Positions 12,756-53,432 of a stretch of 64,000 nucleotides of DNA are shown in pieces. Within the stretch, counting starts at the first letter, position 1, and each line of letters opens with the position of its first letter. The notes under the pieces were generated by a model. That model was not told the DNA's origin. It saw nothing but the letters and a program-made list of their open reading frames with translations, and ran no database searches. The DNA comes from Octopus vulgaris (taxonomy: Eukaryota), in NCBI GenBank assembly GCA_951406725.2, contig OX597815.1, positions 59,768,001-59,832,000 on the forward strand, written 5' to 3'. Position numbers and translations under genes: made by a program.

Positions 12756-13506
12756 ACATGTGGAAGTTTGGTTGCGTTAATTATTGGTTGTTGCAAATTG
12801 CTACATTACATATATATATACAGTCTTTGGTAACAGGGACATGTTAAGGACATAAAAAAAACTTCAACAAGTTCCTTAAAATATTGGGCAAAAAAGATTA
12901 CATAAATAATCGTTCTCAAGGACATACTTAAGATAGTTTCCAAGAAGGAATTGATATTGGTACTGTATCTGTATATTCAAACATGCACAGAATATTGGTT
13001 GACACAGAGTACTATAATCCATATAAATATACAGTCTTTGGTGACAACAGTATGTTGAGAATATAAAAAAAGTTTAACAAGCTCATTGAAATAATGGGCA
13101 GAAAGATTAAAACAAATATATTATACATCTCAGGGTAATTTCCATGAGGAATTATTAAAAAAAGTTCAGTATACACATACAGAATATTATGAGTTCAAAA
13201 AGATTTACATAATTGTAGTGGTGAAGTTGTCACTAACCTGTCCGTTTTAGGAGAAATGTGGAATTGAAAAGAATGTAGCCTGTTTTTTTTTTGGCTCTCC
13301 TTCAAGCATCAATGATTTTGGGGTTAGGATGAGGTGAGTATGTGTGTCTCTGTGTGTATGTGTGTGTGCATACATATACATGTGGTGTGAATAGATGTGT
13401 CTGTGTGTCTGTAGTATTTGGTCGGATGGTGTGTGTATATGTGTGCCCGCCCGTGTGCGCGCGTGTGCGCATCTACGCGTGTGTGCGGGCCATACACACA
13501 CACTAC

Positions 13507-14350
<844 letters not shown>

Positions 14351-14663
14351 CTCTCGCCCCTCCTCACCTATCCTTTCCCCCCGACCCCTACTTCTTCAGT
14401 CCTTCATCCTTTCACCCCTTCTCCCCTTCCCTTCTTCCCTCTTTCTCTCCTCCCTCCCTCTTCCCCTTCCCTCTGCTCCCTCACTCCCCCTCTCCCTCTT
14501 TCCTCCCCCTCCCCCTCCTCCCCTTCCTTCTCCCCCTCCTCTCCTCTTCCCCCCTCTTCTTCCCCTCCCCTTCTCTCCTCCCTCTTCTCCCCCTCCCCCT
14601 CTTCTCCTCACTACACCACACGACTTTACACATCACATCATATATGATGTGCCATACTAATAC

Positions 14664-17600
14664 TGATTGTTCGTTCATTCAGTTGATCGCTTCGGTTCGA
14701 AGATGACCAACTGACTTCATCTGATGGAACTGCCGCCATGAGACCGGAGGTGGCTGGTGAGGCCAATCCGGGCAAGGAAGCCCCTCCCACAGGTGGGGCA
14801 GAAGTGGGTAGGGGCAGTGCTACTGGTGCAGGCGGCCTTGACTTTACGCATCTGACGTTTCTGCTCCGCTGACCGAATCCGTCCCTCCTCGGCTGTCCCT
14901 GCTCCCACGGTGATTGCGCTGCGCCAGGATGAGCGGTTGGCAGCAAGTGTCTCCCAGGTCTCTGTTCCGATGGAGAAGTCTTTGAGAGAGACCTTGAGAC
15001 TATCCTTGTAGCGCTTTTTCTGCCCTCCGACTTTGCGCCTGCCCTGGCCGAGTTCACCGTAGAAGAGCTGTTTTGGGATGCGAGTGTCGGACATGCGGGA
15101 GACGTGGCCCGCCCATCTCAGCTGGGCCTTGCGCATGATTGTGATGGTGCTAGGGAGATCTGCCTGCTTCAGAACTTCCGTGTCTGGGACTTTGTCCTGC
15201 CAGCGGATGTGAAGGAGATTCCGAAGACACCTGAGATGGAAGTGGTTTATCTGGCGCTCGTGCCTTCGGTAAGCAGTCCACGTCTCGCAGCCGTATAGTA
15301 GGGTGGTAAGCACGACTGCCCGGTAGACTTTCAGCTTGGTGTTGAGGCTGATTCCTCTCCGCTCCCAGACTTTCTTTCGCAGTCTCCCAAACGCGCTGCT
15401 TGCCTTGGAGATTCTGTTGATGGTTTCAGCATCTATGTTGGCATTGCAGGAGAGAGTGCTGCCCAGGTAGGTGAAGTTTTCCACCACTCGTAGGATCCGT
15501 CCGTTCACCCTTATCTGAGGCTCATGGTATTGTTTGCCGGGGGCTGGCTGAAACATCACTTCGGTTTTCTTTGCACTGATGGTGAGACCGAAGTTGTCAC
15601 AGGCTGATGAGAACCTGTCCATCTCGAGCTGCATCTCCTGCTCATCGATTGCATTAAGGGCGCAGTCGTCAGCAAAGAGAAAGTCTCTGACGACTGTCTC
15701 CCTCACCTTTGTGACAGCCTGCAATCTCCTGGAGTTGAAAAGTTTCCCGTCTGTCCTGTACTTGATGTTGATACCGGACTTGCAGTCCCTAAAGGCGTCG
15801 GACATCATTGCCGAGAACATGATGCTGAACAGTGTTGGGGCCAGGACACAGCCCTGCCTGACTCCGTTGGTCACCTGGAAGGCTTCAGATGAGTCGCCGT
15901 CTTCAAGGATTCTGGCTGTCATTCCGTCGTGGAACTGGCGGACAATTGCAATAAATTTGCTGGGGCAACCAAATTTTCCCATGACCTTCCATAGTCCCTC
16001 CCGACTGACTGTATCAAAGGCCTTGGTGAGGTCAACAAAGGTCATGCAGAGGTCAAGGTGCTGCTCCATGCATTTCTCCTGGAGCTGGCGGGCGGCGAAT
16101 ATCATGTCAGTGGTCCCTCGACCCGCACGGAAGCCACACTGGCTCTCAGGGAGAAGGCCTTGCTCCAAGTGTTCCAGAAGGCGGTCAAGCAGGACCCGGG
16201 CCAGGATCTTGCCTGCTATGGACAAGAGGGAAATACCTCGGTGGTTGTCGCAGGACTGCCGATCTCCTTTCCGCTTATAAATGTGAACGATTGTTGCATC
16301 CCGGAAATCTTGAGGGAGTTGTTCCCTGTCCCACATCGACTGGAACAGGCTGGTGAGCTGACTGATCATGGTGGGGCCGCCCGACTTGAACACCTCTGCA
16401 GGGATGGCGTCAGAGCCTGGAGCTTTGCCGGTGGACATTTTTTTGATGGCTCTGCTCACTTCCTCGACTGCAGGGGGAACAGCCAACTCGTGGTTTGTCG
16501 GCACCTGGGGGAATCGTGCGATGGCTTCCTCGTTGATCTGGGCTGGTCGGTTGAGCACGATGTTGAAGTGCTCCGCCCATTTCTCCAGGATCAGCCTCTT
16601 GTTAGTCAGGAGTGAGGTTCCATCTGAGCTGAGCAGGGGGGTTGATCCAAAGGAGAACTGCGGTCCATAGACAGCTTTCAGCGCCTCGTAGAATTTCTTG
16701 GTGTCGTGTTTGTCTGCGTATCCCTGAATCTCATCCGCCTTGGCGCTTAACCATGCGTCTTGCATGAGGCGGAGTTTAGCCTGGACTGTGCTGCGAATGT
16801 TGTTGAAAGCGGCCTTCTTTGCCGTGCAGGTGGTTTCATTTTGGTGAGCCCGCAGCAGACGGCGTTTCTCTTCCAGGAGCTTTTGGATTTCCTGGTCGTT
16901 TTCGTCGAACCAGTCCTGGTGGTTCCTCGTAATTTGGCCCAGAGTTTCAAGGGCGATGGAATGAACCGTGTCCCTGAATGATTCCCACTGCTCATCGATG
17001 CTGGACTGGTCACTCCGAATGTCCAACAGCTTACTGTCCATACGTGACTGGAGATCTTGTGCAGTCAGCTGGTTCTTTAATTTCGTGATGTTAAGCTTCC
17101 TCGTCACTTTCTGACCCTGTGGTCTTCTCTTAGGTCGGATGTAGAAATCCATCCTGGAGATGATGAGGCGATGGTCCGTCCAGCAGTCAGCTCCGCACAT
17201 GGCTTTGACCAGTCTCACGTCCCGCCTGTCTTTCGCCCTGACGATGACGTAATCTATCAGATGCCAGTGTTTGGAGCGTGGATGCATCCATGATGTCTTG
17301 TTGCGTGTTGGCAGACGGAACAAGGTGTTGGCGATGGTAAGATCATGAGAGGCACACGCACGCAGGAGGAGCTGTCCATTGCTGTTGCACTTTCCGATTC
17401 CTTGCTTTCCCAGTACGCGATGCCAGGCTTGGTGGTCAGTCCCGACACGGGCGTTAAAATCCCCAAGGAGGATGAGCTTCCCAGGCTGGGCTGACGTGAT
17501 GAGGGAGTCGAGTTCCTCATAGAACCTGTCCTTAACTTCTTCAGGGTTGGTCATGGTGGGGGCGTAAGCACTGATGATGGTCGCACTAGTCTTGTTTCCA

Positions 17601-18604
17601 AGTGGGAGCTGCATCTTCATCAGCCGATCGTTGATACCCTCGGGAGGGCTTTCCAGTTTCCGCACGTGTACTGACTTAATGGCAAAACCAACACCAGCCT
17701 CACGACGCTCTTCGCTGCTGCGACCACTCCAAAAGAAAGTGTAGCCGCCGCCTGTCTCTGTCAGCTGGCCTTTGTCCGCAAGGCGGGTCTCGCTCAGTGC
17801 TGCAATATCGACACTGTATCGGCTCAGTTCTCTGGCCACCAGGGCAGTTCGTCTCTCTGGTCTGTCCGCTTTGGTGTTGTCAAGCAGAGTTCTCACGTTC
17901 CAAGTTGCGAAAGTGAGCACCTTTGTTTGTTTTCTTCTTTCTTTGTTTCGACCGCTTGGAAAGGATCCTCGCCAGCCGCGGTTTGCTGACCAGGGTGAGG
18001 TGAGGCAGGCTATGTTTAGGGCAACCTTTTCTAGCCCCGTCCTCATGCTGGGGAGGCGAGCAGAGCGATCCTGAAGAGGGCTGCTCGGTCACTCAGGAGG
18101 CTGCCGGACTCCACTGCTGCCTCAGTTCAGTGAGGGGCGACCACATGTCCTGAGCCGCCTGTGTGTGGGTTCACGACTGCAGCTCCCAGTGTATCCTCAC
18201 CTGCTACTTCGCCGTTTCCCCATCGCCACAGGACTTTGGGATGGTGTCATGGCGTCATGATGTCGTGACATGCGCGTGACTTGGATTATAGTGAGGGTGA
18301 CTTGCGCAGGATCAGCCTCACTCTCTCGTCCTGGTGCGCCGGATCCAGTGGCAAGACAAAGTCAAGACGACTGGGGGTAGACCAAGATGCAGGAGCTGCC
18401 GGAAGGTGGCACGCATGGCGCAATCCAACCGCCTTAGGGGCTCCACTCCGGATTTTGGATGGCCATTGACTCATGAGAGAGTTCCTCTGCCCTTTGACAG
18501 GTTTTGTTTTTAGTCCTGCTGGGTGTCCAAATCACCCTCCTCACCAAGAAATCTTGGTGGGGTTGCCAGTTTAGTCGCCAACGACCCGACCATGTAACAG
18601 GTTG
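14664..18604 (-). mobile_element. Full-length or near full-length RTE-clade LINE
   Basis: Single intact ORF, ~560-bp 5' UTR, short 3' tail, TSD TACTAATAC at 14655-14663 and 18605-18613. Confidence 0.93.
14717..18046 (-). CDS. RTE ORF: APE endonuclease, reverse transcriptase and C2H2 finger (1109 aa, uninterrupted)
   Basis: ATWNVRTL, ALSETR, LGDFNARVG, WTDHRL (APE); FVDLTKAFD, GVRQGCVLAP, LFADDCAL (RT); CPTCGRGFLARIGLTSHLRSH. Confidence 0.95.
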   Translation of the reverse strand: MRTGLEKVALNIACLTSPWSANRGWRGSFPSGRNKERRKQTKVLTFATWNVRTLLDNTKADRPERRTALVARELSRYSVDIAALSETRLADKGQLTETGGGYTFFWSGRSSEERREAGVGFAIKSVHVRKLESPPEGINDRLMKMQLPLGNKTSATIISAYAPTMTNPEEVKDRFYEELDSLITSAQPGKLILLGDFNARVGTDHQAWHRVLGKQGIGKCNSNGQLLLRACASHDLTIANTLFRLPTRNKTSWMHPRSKHWHLIDYVIVRAKDRRDVRLVKAMCGADCWTDHRLIISRMDFYIRPKRRPQGQKVTRKLNITKLKNQLTAQDLQSRMDSKLLDIRSDQSSIDEQWESFRDTVHSIALETLGQITRNHQDWFDENDQEIQKLLEEKRRLLRAHQNETTCTAKKAAFNNIRSTVQAKLRLMQDAWLSAKADEIQGYADKHDTKKFYEALKAVYGPQFSFGSTPLLSSDGTSLLTNKRLILEKWAEHFNIVLNRPAQINEEAIARFPQVPTNHELAVPPAVEEVSRAIKKMSTGKAPGSDAIPAEVFKSGGPTMISQLTSLFQSMWDREQLPQDFRDATIVHIYKRKGDRQSCDNHRGISLLSIAGKILARVLLDRLLEHLEQGLLPESQCGFRAGRGTTDMIFAARQLQEKCMEQHLDLCMTFVDLTKAFDTVSREGLWKVMGKFGCPSKFIAIVRQFHDGMTARILEDGDSSEAFQVTNGVRQGCVLAPTLFSIMFSAMMSDAFRDCKSGINIKYRTDGKLFNSRRLQAVTKVRETVVRDFLFADDCALNAIDEQEMQLEMDRFSSACDNFGLTISAKKTEVMFQPAPGKQYHEPQIRVNGRILRVVENFTYLGSTLSCNANIDAETINRISKASSAFGRLRKKVWERRGISLNTKLKVYRAVVLTTLLYGCETWTAYRRHERQINHFHLRCLRNLLHIRWQDKVPDTEVLKQADLPSTITIMRKAQLRWAGHVSRMSDTRIPKQLFYGELGQGRRKVGGQKKRYKDSLKVSLKDFSIGTETWETLAANRSSWRSAITVGAGTAEEGRIRSAEQKRQMRKVKAACTSSTAPTHFCPTCGRGFLARIGLTSHLRSHGGSSIR

Positions 18605-18945
18605 TACTAATACATACACCAACTAATACATACTAATACGTACTAATACATACTAATACATACTAATACATACATCAACCCTATACATACACACGTCCAG
18701 ACACCTCATAGGCACTTATACTCTCTCATACACACACACACACACACACTTATACATACTAATACGTACTAATACATACTAATACATACTAATACATACA
18801 CCAACCCCATACATACGCACGTCCACACCAATCCTACGCACTAATACTCTCTCATACACACACACACACACACACACCCTTATACATACTAATACATACA
18901 CCAACCCTATACATACACACGTCCAGACCCCTCCTACGCACTATT
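18605..18945. repeat. CATACTAATA-based minisatellite
   Basis: Repeated CATACTAATA and CCAACCCTATACATAC units. Confidence 0.8.
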
Positions 18946-19114
18946 AGCTGGTCCTTCAACCATATTATCAACCCTATTATCTCCCCTTATTTCGCTCTCG
19001 CGTCTCATGTTTGATCTTTGACCTCTGGCCGAAATCAGATCGCCATGTTGATTCGTTAGCTACTGCACGCATTTTATTCTCTCCTTCTTTCTGTGTTTTT
19101 TTTCTCTCTGTGTA

Positions 19115-19152
19115 TCTTTCTGTTGAAGAGCGTAGGCTCGAAACGTTAAAGA
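19115..19152 (+). ncRNA. Minimal type I hammerhead, core variant CTGTTGA
   Basis: TCTTT-CTGTTGA-A-GAGC.GTAG.GCTC-GAAA-CGTT-AAAGA; palindromic ACGT stem III as in PLE minimal HHRs. Confidence 0.6.
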
Positions 19153-19260
19153 CTTGTTTTATTTATATTTCCTGAGCGCCATACTAATACAATTGTTCGT
19201 TTGTTTTCCACCTGCCTTCGTCTTTTGTCTATTTTCATAAAGCTTCCCGTTATATATATG

Positions 19261-19551
<291 letters not shown>

Positions 19552-19700
19552 TATAGAGAGTGGTCACTATATTGATCACTCTAGCACCAGTAAATCCAAA
19601 AGGTTTCAACCACGAAAAATACATGTTTCCCATGAAAGCCGGTACGACTGTTAGCTCACACGGACAGGGCAAATAAAAAATAACAAAAATACAGATTATT

Positions 19701-19776
19701 TTGGGACAATTGTTTCGCTATTAATGAATTAAATGTAATATTACTTACAATAATCCATTTGTAGCTCTTCAGCCAA
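19701..19776 (-). ncRNA. Type I hammerhead ribozyme, canonical core
   Basis: TTGG-CTGAAGA-GCTA...TAGC-GAAA-CAATT-GTC-CCAA. Confidence 0.88.
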
Positions 19777-20699
19777 GACTATCTGGATGAAATCCACTCA
19801 ATCACACGCCAGATTTTACCATAACGATAAATACGCGTGCGGTTCAATTGATTACATCGGACGTTATAATTCAAATGCCCCAACCAACAGCGCGCCAAAC
19901 TCTCACGGAAAAGAAATACAGCATTTAGAAATAAATGCAGCATAATTATAATTAATTAATAAGGGTGAGAGAATTAGATACTAATTTAATAGTATATTTA
20001 TTCCACACCAAGTGGCCTAGTGCTACGAGAAACCTGGATTATTATAATATTTTATAACATATTATAATATTTTCACAAAATAAATATAAGAGAGTGGTCA
20101 CTATATTGATCACTCTAGCACCAGTAAATCAAAAGGTTTCAACCACGAAAAATACATGTTTCCCATGAAAGCCGGTACGACTGTTAGCTCACACGGACAG
20201 GGCAAATAAAAAATAACAAAAATACAGATTATTTTGGAAATAATCTGTATTTTTGTTATTTTTTATTTGCCCTGTCCGTGTGAGCTAACAGTCGTACCGG
20301 CTTTCATGGGAAACATGTATTTTTCGTGGTTGAAACCTTTTGGATTTATTGGTGCTAGAGTGATCAATATAGTGACCACTCTCTTATATTTATTTTGTGA
20401 AAATATTATAATATGTTATAAAATATTATAATAATCCAGGTTTCTTTTCGTAGCACTAGGCCACTTGGTGTGGAATAAATATACTATTAAATTAGTATCT
20501 AATTCTCTCACCCTTATTAATTAATTATAATTATGCTGCATTTATTTCTAAATGCTGTATTTCTTTTCCGTGAGAGTTTGGCGCGCTGTTGGTTGGGGCA
20601 TTTGAATTATAACGTCCGATGTAATCAATTGAACCGCACGCGTATTTATCGTTATGGTAAAATCTGGCGTGTGATTGAGTGGATTTCATCCAGATAGTC

Positions 20700-20775
20700 T
20701 TGGCTGAAGAGCTACAAATGGATTATTGTAAGTAATATTACATTTAATTCATTAATAGCGAAACAATTGTCCCAA
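20700..20775 (+). ncRNA. Type I hammerhead ribozyme, canonical core
   Basis: TTGG-CTGAAGA(20704)-GCTA...TAGC-GAAA-CAATT-GTC(20769-20771)-CCAA. Confidence 0.88.
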
Positions 20776-21062
20776 AATAATCTGTATTTTTGTTATTTTT
20801 TATTTGCCCTGTCCGTGTGAGCTAACAGTCGTACCGGCTTTCATGGGAAACATGTATTTTTCGTGGTTGAAACCTTTTGGATTTACTGGTGCTAGAGTGA
20901 TCAATATAGTGACCACTCTCTTATATTTATTTTGTGAAAATATTATAATATGTTATAAAATATTATAATAATCCAGGTTTCTCGTAGCACTAGGCCACTT
21001 GGTGTGGAATAAATATACTATTAAATTAGTATCTAATTCTCTCACCCTTATTAATTAATTAT

Positions 21063-22335
<1,273 letters not shown>

Positions 22336-23051
22336 TGGGTACAGGACGTAAAAAAACGTGAAAAAATGAGAAACGAAAAAAAATCAAAGGCATGGAAAAT
22401 GAACTTTTTTCGAACAACGAAAAAACAAATAGAGAAACGAGACATGCAACATAAAGAACATTCCCTTCATCAGTTTTCCCCTGTTTTATCTACTCCGCGT
22501 TACGAAGGTAGGGACAAGACGCGACTTCGTTAAAACAATCCTTCCCGCAAAGCAAATTAAAAAACAATTTAGGATTTTTTGCGGAGGAATAAAGTGGTAA
22601 CAAAAATAGGACAGTAAGAACAAGGCAGTAAAAACAAACGGTGAGGGTTGTTAAGCCATAACGAATTGAAGTGGTGAACGCTGAAAAAACGAGCTTTGAG
22701 AAAAGACAGGCAAAAGCACGTCTTGTCTTTAGGAAAGAAGTGGAAGAAACAAAGATAGATAGCCGCTGGTCACGTGTGAGCAACGAAAGATTCAAGGAGG
22801 AAGAGTGTGAGAGAGAGAGAGAGAGAGAGAGGGAGCGGTGAAGGGGAGAGGAGAAGAATTAGAGAAAGGGTGGGAGAGATAAACAGAAAGGAAGAAGAAC
22901 AAGAGAGGGATATAGAATAGTGATCGGTTGAAGAGTGCGCATCAGAATTATTAGGATAAAACTTACTTGGAAATGGATGTGTGGTGTTCACCATATAATA
23001 ATATAAATAATATATATATGCATATATACACACATACATGTACATGCCTAC

Positions 23052-32728: not shown

Positions 32729-32786
<58 letters not shown>

Positions 32787-33068
32787 ATTAATTAATAAGG
32801 GTGAGAGAATTAGATACTAATTTAATAGTATATCTATTCTACACCAAGTGGCCTAGTGCTCCGAGAAACCTGGATTATTATATTATTTTACAATATATTA
32901 TAATATTTTTACAAAATAAATATAAGAGAGTGGTCACTATATGGCTCACTCTAGCACCAGTTAATCCAAAAGGTTTCAACCACAAAAATACATGCTTCCC
33001 ATGAAAGTTAGTACGATTGTTAGCTCACACGGACAGGGCAAATAAAAAATAACAAAATACAGATTATT

Positions 33069-33147
33069 TTGGGACAATTGTTTCGCTATTAATGAATTAA
33101 ATGTAATTTTACTTACAATTAAAATCCACTTGTAGCTCTTCAGCCAA
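33069..33147 (-). ncRNA. Type I hammerhead ribozyme
   Basis: TTTTGG-CTGAAGA-GCTA...TAGC-GAAA-CAATT-GTC-CCAAAA. Confidence 0.88.
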
Positions 33148-33603
33148 AACTATCTGGATGAAATCCACTCAATCACACGCCAGATTTTACCATAACGATA
33201 AATACGCGTGTGGTTCAATTGATTACATCCGACGTTATAATTCAAATGCCCCAACTAACAGCGCGCCAAACTTTCACGGAAAACAAATACAGCATTTAGA
33301 AATAAATGCAGCATAATTATAATTAATTAATAAGGGTGAGAGAATTAGATACTAATTTAATAGTATATCTATTCTACACCAAGTGGCCTAGTGCTCCGAG
33401 AAACCTGGATTATTATATTATTTTACAATATATTATAATATTTTTACAAAATAAATATAAGAGAGTGGTCACTATATGGCTCACTCTAGCACCAGTTAAT
33501 CCAAAAGGTTTCAACCACAAAAATACATGCTTCCCATGAAAGTTAGTACGATTGTTAGCTCACACGGACAGGGCAAATAAAAAATAACAAAATACAGATT
33601 ATT

Positions 33604-33682
33604 TTGGGACAATTGTTTCGCTATTAATGAATTAAATGTAATTTTACTTACAATTAAAATCCACTTGTAGCTCTTCAGCCAA
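33604..33682 (-). ncRNA. Type I hammerhead ribozyme
   Basis: Same motif as 33069, 535 bp away. Confidence 0.88.
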
Positions 33683-34096
33683 AACTATCTGGATGAAATC
33701 CACTCAATCACACGCCAGATTTTACCATAACGATAAATACGCGTGTGGTTCAATTGATTACATCCGACGTTATAATTCAAATGCCCCAACTAACAGCGCG
33801 CCAAACTTTCACGGAAAACAAATACAGCATTTAGAAATAAATGCAGCATAATTATAATTAATTAATAAGGGTGAGAGAATTAGATACTAATTTAATAGTA
33901 TATCTATTCTACACCAAGTGGCCTAGTGCTCCGAGAAACCTGGATTATTATATTATTTTACAATATATTATAATATTTTTACAAAATAAATATAAGAGAG
34001 TGGTCACTATATGGCTCACTCTCAATTGAACCACACGCGTATTTATCGTTATGGTAAAATCTGGCGTGTGATTGAGTGGATTTCATCCAGATAGTT

Positions 34097-34175
34097 TTGG
34101 CTGAAGAGCTACAAGTGGATTTTAATTGTAAGTAAAATTACATTTAATTCATTAATAGCGAAACAATTGTCCCAA
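34097..34175 (+). ncRNA. Type I hammerhead ribozyme
   Basis: TTGG-CTGAAGA(34101)...GAAA-CAATT-GTC(34169-34171)-CCAA. Confidence 0.88.
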
Positions 34176-34327
34176 AATAATCTGTATTTTGTTATTTTTT
34201 ATTTGCCCTGTCCGTGTGAGCTAACAATCGTACTAACTTTCATGGGAAGCATGTATTTTTGTGGTTGAAACCTTTTGGACTAACTGGTGCTAGAGTGAGC
34301 CATATAGTGACCACTCTCTTATATTTA

Positions 34328-34393
<66 letters not shown>

Positions 34394-34478
34394 GTATGTA
34401 TGCATACGTGTATGTTAATTCATACGCATTTTTCTTCTCCGTTGTTTTTGTTTCTGTCCGTTTTTTCCCTTCTCAATC

Positions 34479-34514
34479 CTTTCTGTTGAAGAGCATAGGC
34501 TTGAAACGTCAAAG
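34479..34514 (+). ncRNA. Minimal hammerhead (CTGTTGA core) in a solo PLE terminal repeat (~34410-34610)
   Basis: CTTT-CTGTTGA-A-GAGC.ATAG.GCTT-GAAA-C-GTC-AAAG; surrounding sequence resembles 19065-19250. Confidence 0.62.
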
Positions 34515-34617
34515 ACTTCCCCATTCTTCCCGAGCGTCAAACCAATATACCTGCTTGTTGTTCCTTCACATGTCTACGTCTTTCAGTTTTTGTAAGATTG
34601 AACTATATATTTAAATA

Positions 34618-49539: not shown

Positions 49540-53145
<3,606 letters not shown>

Positions 53146-53171: not shown

Positions 53172-53432
53172 GATGTAATATGGTGACAATTATTCGGTAG
53201 CCATGATAAAACTCCGAGTTTCAGATGCCGAGGCGGAAATCCACGCCGCCGTCTTTTCAGTTATCCGGTCATCGGAAAAATACTATGAAAAACCGTTACT
53301 TGTGTATATGTCATTTTACCTAGTATTTTTCCGATGGTCGGATAACTGAAGAGATGGTAGCGTGGATTTCCACCTCGGCATCCGAAACTCGGAGTTTTAT
53401 CATGGCTACCGAATAATTGCCACATATTACAT
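53172..53432. repeat. ~260-bp foldback with an HHR in each arm
   Basis: 53172-53285 mirrors 53320-53432. Confidence 0.9.
53341..53401 (+). ncRNA. Type I hammerhead ribozyme (mirror 53205-53265 has mutated core CTGAAAA)
   Basis: GATAA-CTGAAGA-GATG...CATC.C-GAAA-CTCGGA-GTT-TTATC. Confidence 0.75.

Follow-up and report, generated by a model that had tools for sequence, protein, structure and literature searches.

The genome of Octopus vulgaris contains a young family of non-coding 534-bp tandem repeats, typically inserted as two head-to-head arms that end at two different fixed sites of the unit. We think it probable that this repeat is copied in trans by a Penelope-like enzyme, by paired priming at these two sites (A and B) on one RNA, with a cleaved template accounting for the locus joined at 20237/20238. 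The window analyzed is a stretch of 64,000 nucleotides of contig OX597815.1. Unit positions are written with a u, where u1 is the first base 3' of GUC at the predicted hammerhead cut. The ruler is the natural 533-nt monomer at 19705-20237, which has one G fewer than the 534-bp family unit. The features considered are as follows.

19251..19554: left part of the (TA)n target
19555..20237, minus strand: minus arm, 683 nt (533 + 150), from u1 through a full monomer to u149 of the next
19691..19785, minus strand: predicted type I hammerhead in the minus arm, with CTGAAGA beginning at 19772 and cleavage predicted between 19705 and 19704
20237..20238: head-to-head junction u1/u4, without microhomology, 3 nt short of a perfect palindrome
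20238..21063, plus strand: plus arm, 826 nt, from u4 through one monomer to u291
20691..20785, plus strand: predicted type I hammerhead of the plus arm; core at 20704-20710 and 20761-20764, predicted cut after C20771
20930..21063, plus strand: tail between sites A and B, about 130 nt, in the plus arm only; contains u247-287
21064..22336: right part of the (TA)n target
32783..34328: second locus of the family (L070), about 94% identical, with its junction at u122/u387 and not at the cut site; overlooked in the initial annotation

The locus and its repeat family

At 19555-21063, two arms of the 534-bp unit lie head to head inside (TA)n, with the junction 1 and 4 nt past the GUC site. The minus arm, read from 20237 to 19555, opens with CCAAAATAATC, which is u1, and reaches the next GUC at 19705. 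Its 3' end, at site A (u149, where the family norm is u158-163), is fused to (TA)n, as is the 3' end of the plus arm at site B. Positions 19555-20031 and 20445-20921 are 100% complementary across 477 nt, and the arms of this locus (L104) have three private variants in common. They have no unit-specific difference in common, and a circle and a linear multimer fit alike as templates. The anatomy claimed in the initial annotation (inverted arms, a hammerhead in each, a junction at the predicted cut site and outer ends in (TA)n) is borne out on the sequence. At the second locus, the minus arm (34022 to 32783) ends at B (u291) and the plus arm (34022-34328) at A (u158); both loci in the window keep the rule of one A end and one B end.

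A genome search in which 40 of 1002 candidate places were scored gave 260 matches. Family 3' ends were probed with an exact 27-letter pattern, consisting of the B end fused to (TA)n. The pattern occurs 842 times genome-wide on many contigs (control, 0) and in 20 of the 39 best loci, from which we estimate the family at about 1,000-1,600 loci. Copies are 81-100% alike and form dispersed arrays with a 534-bp period and up to 12 or more units per arm. The unit has no LTR structure and holds no ORF of at least 150 aa, the sole overlapping ORF being (TA)n read-through, and no ORF is joined to any arm inspected, where the RT and GIY-YIG that define an autonomous Penelope-like element (PLE) were likewise not found. 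The most conserved stretch is the 41 nt before B (u247-287, 0.13% variable). The 3' flanks of family loci show a preference for (TA)n or AT-rich targets, as in PLE-type integration. Contigs of three sequencing runs, which are RNA only by our guess, cover the unit and the unit-to-unit join, and circles, multimers or DNA fit them alike. The earlier assignment to a retrozyme- or PLE-like family is supported by the hammerhead in each unit, the short, dispersed and non-coding tandem units and the PLE insertion marks, and the family fits non-LTR retrozymes with Penelope-like marks of insertion. A search of mainly open-access literature retrieved no description of this family, for which a Repbase or Dfam entry may exist.

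Some loci depart from the usual pattern. Three on one contig (L078, L164 and L166) coincide exactly in their junction, u37/u522, and in their non-TA flank, which we read as one insertion recopied within a larger unit or duplication. Two insertions (L038 and L061) lie outside (TA)n, and their flanks resemble inverted or duplicated target sequence, possibly a target-site signature.

The predicted hammerhead

The motif TTGG-CTGAAGA-GCTA..TAGC-GAAA-C-AATT-G-TC^CCAA occurs once per arm, with the plus-arm GUC ending at 20771, and all full units of both window loci carry it. Folding recovers helices I and II (z -2.8; 4 of 200 shuffles were equally good), helix II being about 50 nt long. Helix III consists of one pair, with the palindrome ACAATTGT as its cap; this is the dimer-dependent type, a form reported for metazoan motifs (PMC4209133, PMC7229834). 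When two copies are co-folded, an 8-bp intermolecular helix III is predicted (-51.6 versus 2 x -21.2 kcal/mol). Rfam scans reported no hammerhead model, only low-complexity noise. The word canonical in the initial description of this type I hammerhead is loose, given the long helix II, the single-pair helix III and the Rfam result. Since cutting is predicted to occur in dimers, partly cleaved RNAs would remain.

With each locus counted once (about 110-120 loci, which are related and not independent evidence), the hammerhead core is variable at 10 of 1374 letters (0.7%), versus 2.6% for the unit. Core position 7, which is a free position, is A in 57, C in 37 and G in 15 across loci.

A sister family, about 70% identical and older, has 2918 candidate places and was seen at L068:4740-5290 (minus strand). 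It swaps helix I from TTGG/CCAA to mostly YYCA or CYYA/TGGG, which is still complementary, and keeps GAAACAATTG; many copies have a CCGATGA core. Its 3' ends lie at homologous places. Among about 15 inverted loci read by eye, 11 are A'/B' and 0 are B'/B', in a count where the query biases the main arm to B'.

Outer ends, arm pairs and the cut site

Mapping covered the 39 other best loci plus 90 taken from the first 100 entries of the 842, with the two window loci and the last eight entries left out; 30 of the 90 were taken with 1.5-kb flanks and 60 at 5.5 kb. Two mapped loci were dropped as duplicates of one junction. The resulting sample comprises 127 loci, 75 of which are simple head-to-head inversions.

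Arms end at two 3' sites, A (u145-172, mostly 158-163) and B (u270-297, mostly 285-291). The 119 loci not chosen by 3' end include 69 simple inversions, 65 of them complete: 59 pair A with B, in 6 at least one end lies elsewhere, and none is A/A or B/B. Single arms in this set end at B (20), at A (15) or elsewhere (2), and 13 of the 119 loci are complex or unmapped. In the B-selected sample, the partner arm ends at A in 40 of 43 cases and at B in 0. The outer ends, first described as plain fusions to (TA)n, are instead the most regular feature of the family. The one-sided tail that sites A and B delimit, about 130 nt long, is of the PLE type.

Across 93 arm pairs, 544 variants are common to both arms versus 126 discordant ones, and the median mismatch is 0.2% within a locus versus 3.0% across loci. 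Among the variant columns, 912 are fixed in all units of a locus, 228 are singletons and 22 occur in a subset of units. That variants are common to arms and units points to one template or one very uniform source. The homogeneity of the units agrees with a circle, and arms of up to 12 units favor a circle or template jumping.

Such uniformity could also arise by fold-back, in which one cDNA or an antisense template primes itself to make the inverted arm, and endonuclease resolution produces the tail. Self-priming on an antisense template has been proposed for the tail and for palindromic head-to-head joins (PMC3846280), and endonuclease resolution for the one-sided tail of Penelope (PMC8557442). 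Private variants common to both arms agree with fold-back, as do the 19 of 75 junctions that are hairpin-like, most with a B arm about 130 nt longer, and the 20237/20238 locus is itself a near-perfect palindrome. In 37 of 99 A/B loci, however, the long arm does not contain the short one, and the arms of 12 loci overlap by no more than 12 nt. Either arm may be the longer one (the A arm in 40 of the 99), and lengths differ by up to 6.6 kb. At least in the 37 loci, two separately primed cDNAs are required. Simple fold-back is thus rejected as the general mechanism. We consider it improbable as an account of the family, and it could stand behind part of the 62 contained cases.

The reading we prefer is paired priming. 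The RNA of the 534-bp repeat would be copied in trans by a Penelope-like reverse transcriptase/endonuclease. Both strands of the (TA)n target would be cut, each priming a cDNA at its own internal site, one strand at A (about u160) and the other at B (about u291), on the same RNA. The strand-specific use of A and B is what we infer rather than observe, because the Poseidon enzyme PAc showed no strand difference in vitro. The two cDNAs would stop independently and have their 3' ends joined, mostly via microhomology. A circular monomer or a uniform multimer may be the usual template, and stops would then be scattered.

The initial annotation proposed comparing 5' truncation points with GTC^, and took random ends as evidence against its reading. 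The 5' ends proved largely scattered, with 3 of 186 at u1-5, where 1.7 would be expected if they were uniform. Like-built patterns were then counted genome-wide for four 5-nt windows, with indel and complex matches removed by eye. True 5' ends made up 24 of 30 matches at u1-5, 19 of 25 at u64-68, 17 of 26 at u523-527 and 8 of 11 at u429-433; the respective anchor counts are 144, 125, 169 and 144, and the filter pass rate is 0.50-0.51 in all. With the 20237/20238 locus removed, u1-5 has no significant excess over two flanking windows (22/144 versus 36/294, p 0.25). The idea that cleavage defines the 5' ends of the family is therefore rejected, since the ends are scattered and do not pile up significantly relative to matched controls, and so cleavage sets the 5' end in only about 1-2% of arms. 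Nine arms have unusual 5' flanks that resemble host repeats.

Blunt u1/u2 head-to-head joins are also present at two other loci, whose flanks are unrelated and which belong to different subfamilies (96% and 81-86% to the ruler). In both, the arms are just 161 and 292 nt long, exactly the cut-to-A and cut-to-B lengths. About 0.4 (0.2-0.6) such loci would be expected by chance, and the probability of two or more is about 0.02-0.11, an expectation that depends on a rate of 3/75 and the estimated locus number. Three blunt loci fall at u1-4, and in the three controls no locus has both arms within the same 5-nt window. A partner-arm stop no more than 25 nt away is seen in 10 of 14 cases (20237/20238 locus removed) versus 8 of 24 (p 0.04). 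The two further independent blunt loci make run-off from cleaved RNA likely for a rare subclass, and for the 20237/20238 locus we find run-off from a cleaved RNA end reasonably likely. Its template would have been a linear RNA, cut at one hammerhead and uncut at the next; both cDNAs would have passed through one unit and run off the same cleaved 5' end, to be joined bluntly with the loss of 3 nt. As each arm crosses one uncut hammerhead, this template would be a partly cleaved multimer.

The same family and the same two-ended insertion might instead have placed a junction at the cut site by coincidence, with co-stalling cDNAs and with the inverted repeat at u3-19 as a joining hot spot. The scattered 5' ends without a significant excess at u1-5 are in keeping with this, as are the 0.2-0.6 blunt same-site joins expected by chance in the u1-5 window. 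Both arms stop within 25 nt at 19 of 75 junctions (25%; 7.2 expected), spread across the unit, and near-exact double stops also occur at u45, u87 and u257. Local TATTTT/AAAATA microhomology (u2-5 to u14-22) is used by 7 of 11 near-site double junctions, and for these no cleavage is needed. Coincidence accounts less well for three independent blunt joins on u1/u2/u4 with none just upstream of the cut, where the pattern allowed a 14-nt gap, and for the exact arm lengths of the two further blunt loci. On this evidence we regard coincidence as unlikely, though a serious competitor to run-off.

Very improbable, in our judgment, is a satellite or foldback DNA element that spreads by recombination or a DNA intermediate and carries the hammerhead as a relic, or a junction that is an assembly chimera. 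The runs that cover the unit are only guessed to be RNA, which would suit a DNA element, and a chimera would agree with the finding of no contig over the u1/u4 junction among 29 of about 3,300 pieces from four sequencing runs, a result equally compatible with a sound junction. A DNA element is hard to reconcile with hundreds of dispersed loci that combine a conserved ribozyme core and two fixed 3' ends with variable 5' ends. The locus keeps the A/B rule, its arms share three private variants and like junctions occur at two other loci, all of which speak against a chimera.

Run-off thus leaves part of the initial interpretation standing. An origin of this copy from self-cleaved RNA is plausible given the two like blunt loci, with no significant 5'-end excess at the cut site to add to them. 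As a genomic record of in vivo cleavage the locus is suggestive and falls short of proof, its junction type being rare in the family. The cut-site junction is a minor subclass and not the family rule.

Other junctions recur as well. One at u257 was seen in L091, L144 and L183, and one at u150-165, at an internal palindrome, in L037, L041 and L052; we read both as other hot spots of 5' joining. In L120:1230-1660, a same-strand join leads from u469, inside the hammerhead core, to u1, perhaps the trace of a template jump off a cleaved RNA end.

Relation to retrozymes, Penelope-like elements and L1

Non-LTR retrozymes are likewise non-coding, AT-rich tandem units with one type I hammerhead each (PMC7229834; Li, Clavereau & Pollet 2026, bioRxiv 10.64898/2026.07.22.740005, hereafter the 2026 preprint). 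Those of animals also form dispersed arrays of varying length and are proposed to be PLE-mobilized (PMC7229834; 2026 preprint), and the axolotl retrozyme HHR_Amex1 likewise has a one-pair helix III capped by a palindromic tetraloop (PMC7229834). The unit is 534 bp here versus 150-450 bp (Cervera & de la Pena 2020, PMC7229834) and 51-972 bp (2026 preprint), and its helix II of about 50 nt is unlike the animal retrozymes compared in those two sources. Inverted arms and fixed 3' ends, as found here, are not described in the portions of PMC7229834 ('inverted', 0 occurrences) or the 2026 preprint consulted. In the preprint, the link between retrozymes and PLEs is drawn from distribution and sequence rather than from end structure, and an origin of retrozymes from the PLE pLTR is proposed. 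Retrozymes are self-cleaving RNAs with linear and circular monomers, whereas the present family is known from DNA sequence and a predicted fold.

The window contains GIY-YIG fragments from two PLE families, open copies of which elsewhere in the genome reach 775 aa and up to about 1,200 aa. From a zinc-finger motif, we take these families to belong to the clade Neptune. Their 3' regions have no sequence in common with the unit, so that pLTR kinship is not seen in these two, and the mobilizing PLE was not found among them. The second, more active family runs with its 3' end into (TA)n at one fixed site. An inverted 5' arm was found in 0 of 29 copies of the ~1,200-aa family, within the sequence examined.

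The 3' end of the ~1,200-aa family at 18600-19250 (plus strand) forms the left flank of the 20237/20238 locus, in the same (TA)n run, and contains at 19120-19153 (plus strand) a minimal-hammerhead-like motif with an odd core letter at position 6 and palindromic ACGT. The GIY-YIG 3' part of this family lies at 13395-14660 (plus strand), and its 3' UTR, which resumes near 18600, appears to be cut off by a LINE whose endonuclease/RT frame, at 14717-18088 (minus strand), is open over 1,123 aa. Broken RT and GIY-YIG fragments at 51412-52853 (minus strand) belong to the family with many identical 775-aa genome copies, which have a long common 3' region rich in simple repeats. A diverged minimal-hammerhead-like repeat at 34430-34600 (plus strand; motif near 34481-34515) adjoins the second locus. 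At 53338-53410 (plus strand) is a lone type I hammerhead-like motif, CTGAAGA..GAAA with helix I GATAA/TTATC, unrelated to the unit.

EN+ Penelope-like elements likewise have a head-to-head inverted 5' copy, 5' truncation, (TA)n targets and a tail at one end, the tail being 30-40 nt versus about 130 nt here (PMC8557442, PMC3846280). Unlike them, the present family has no RT/GIY-YIG ORF, both arms can be many units long, and a strict pairing of one site per arm was counted. In vitro, Poseidon PAc, a predicted dimer, cuts and extends both strands and starts reverse transcription at two internal sites, which mark the limits of the tail seen in the genome (PMC11167929). Hammerhead cleavage was not needed in that system, the start site did not differ between strands, and RNA-seq gave no reads at the cut site (PMC11167929). 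The two tail-bounding start sites are as in our family, and the strand difference, absent in PAc, is a feature we propose only here (PMC11167929). The same search of mainly open-access literature found no counted one-site-per-arm rule. Added here are the A/B count, the ~130-nt tail, the non-contained arms and their occurrence in a retrozyme-type repeat.

In L1 twin priming, two target-strand primers on one RNA produce a head-to-head inversion, with a variable second site and with each cDNA copied from its own part of the RNA. The two-primer inversion is alike in our family, which differs from L1 in its two fixed sites and its usually overlapping arms.

Retrozymes have been tied to PLEs mainly via co-occurrence and sequence kinship. 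The present young, high-copy and short family provides a countable read-out in the form of a fixed start per strand, arms that are not fold-backs and a small cut-site class. With it, strand-specific priming and the part played by cleavage can be put to a direct test on a 534-nt RNA. Our fullest proposal, which we advance tentatively, is that a dimeric Penelope-type enzyme uses one retrozyme RNA with an own fixed site for each target strand, yielding two rolling arms joined head to head, and that the three blunt u1/u2 junctions may be the first genomic record of a hammerhead-cleaved RNA template in vivo. If true, dimeric two-site priming would account for the inverted structure and the one-sided tail of PLEs, both long unexplained, without antisense self-priming.
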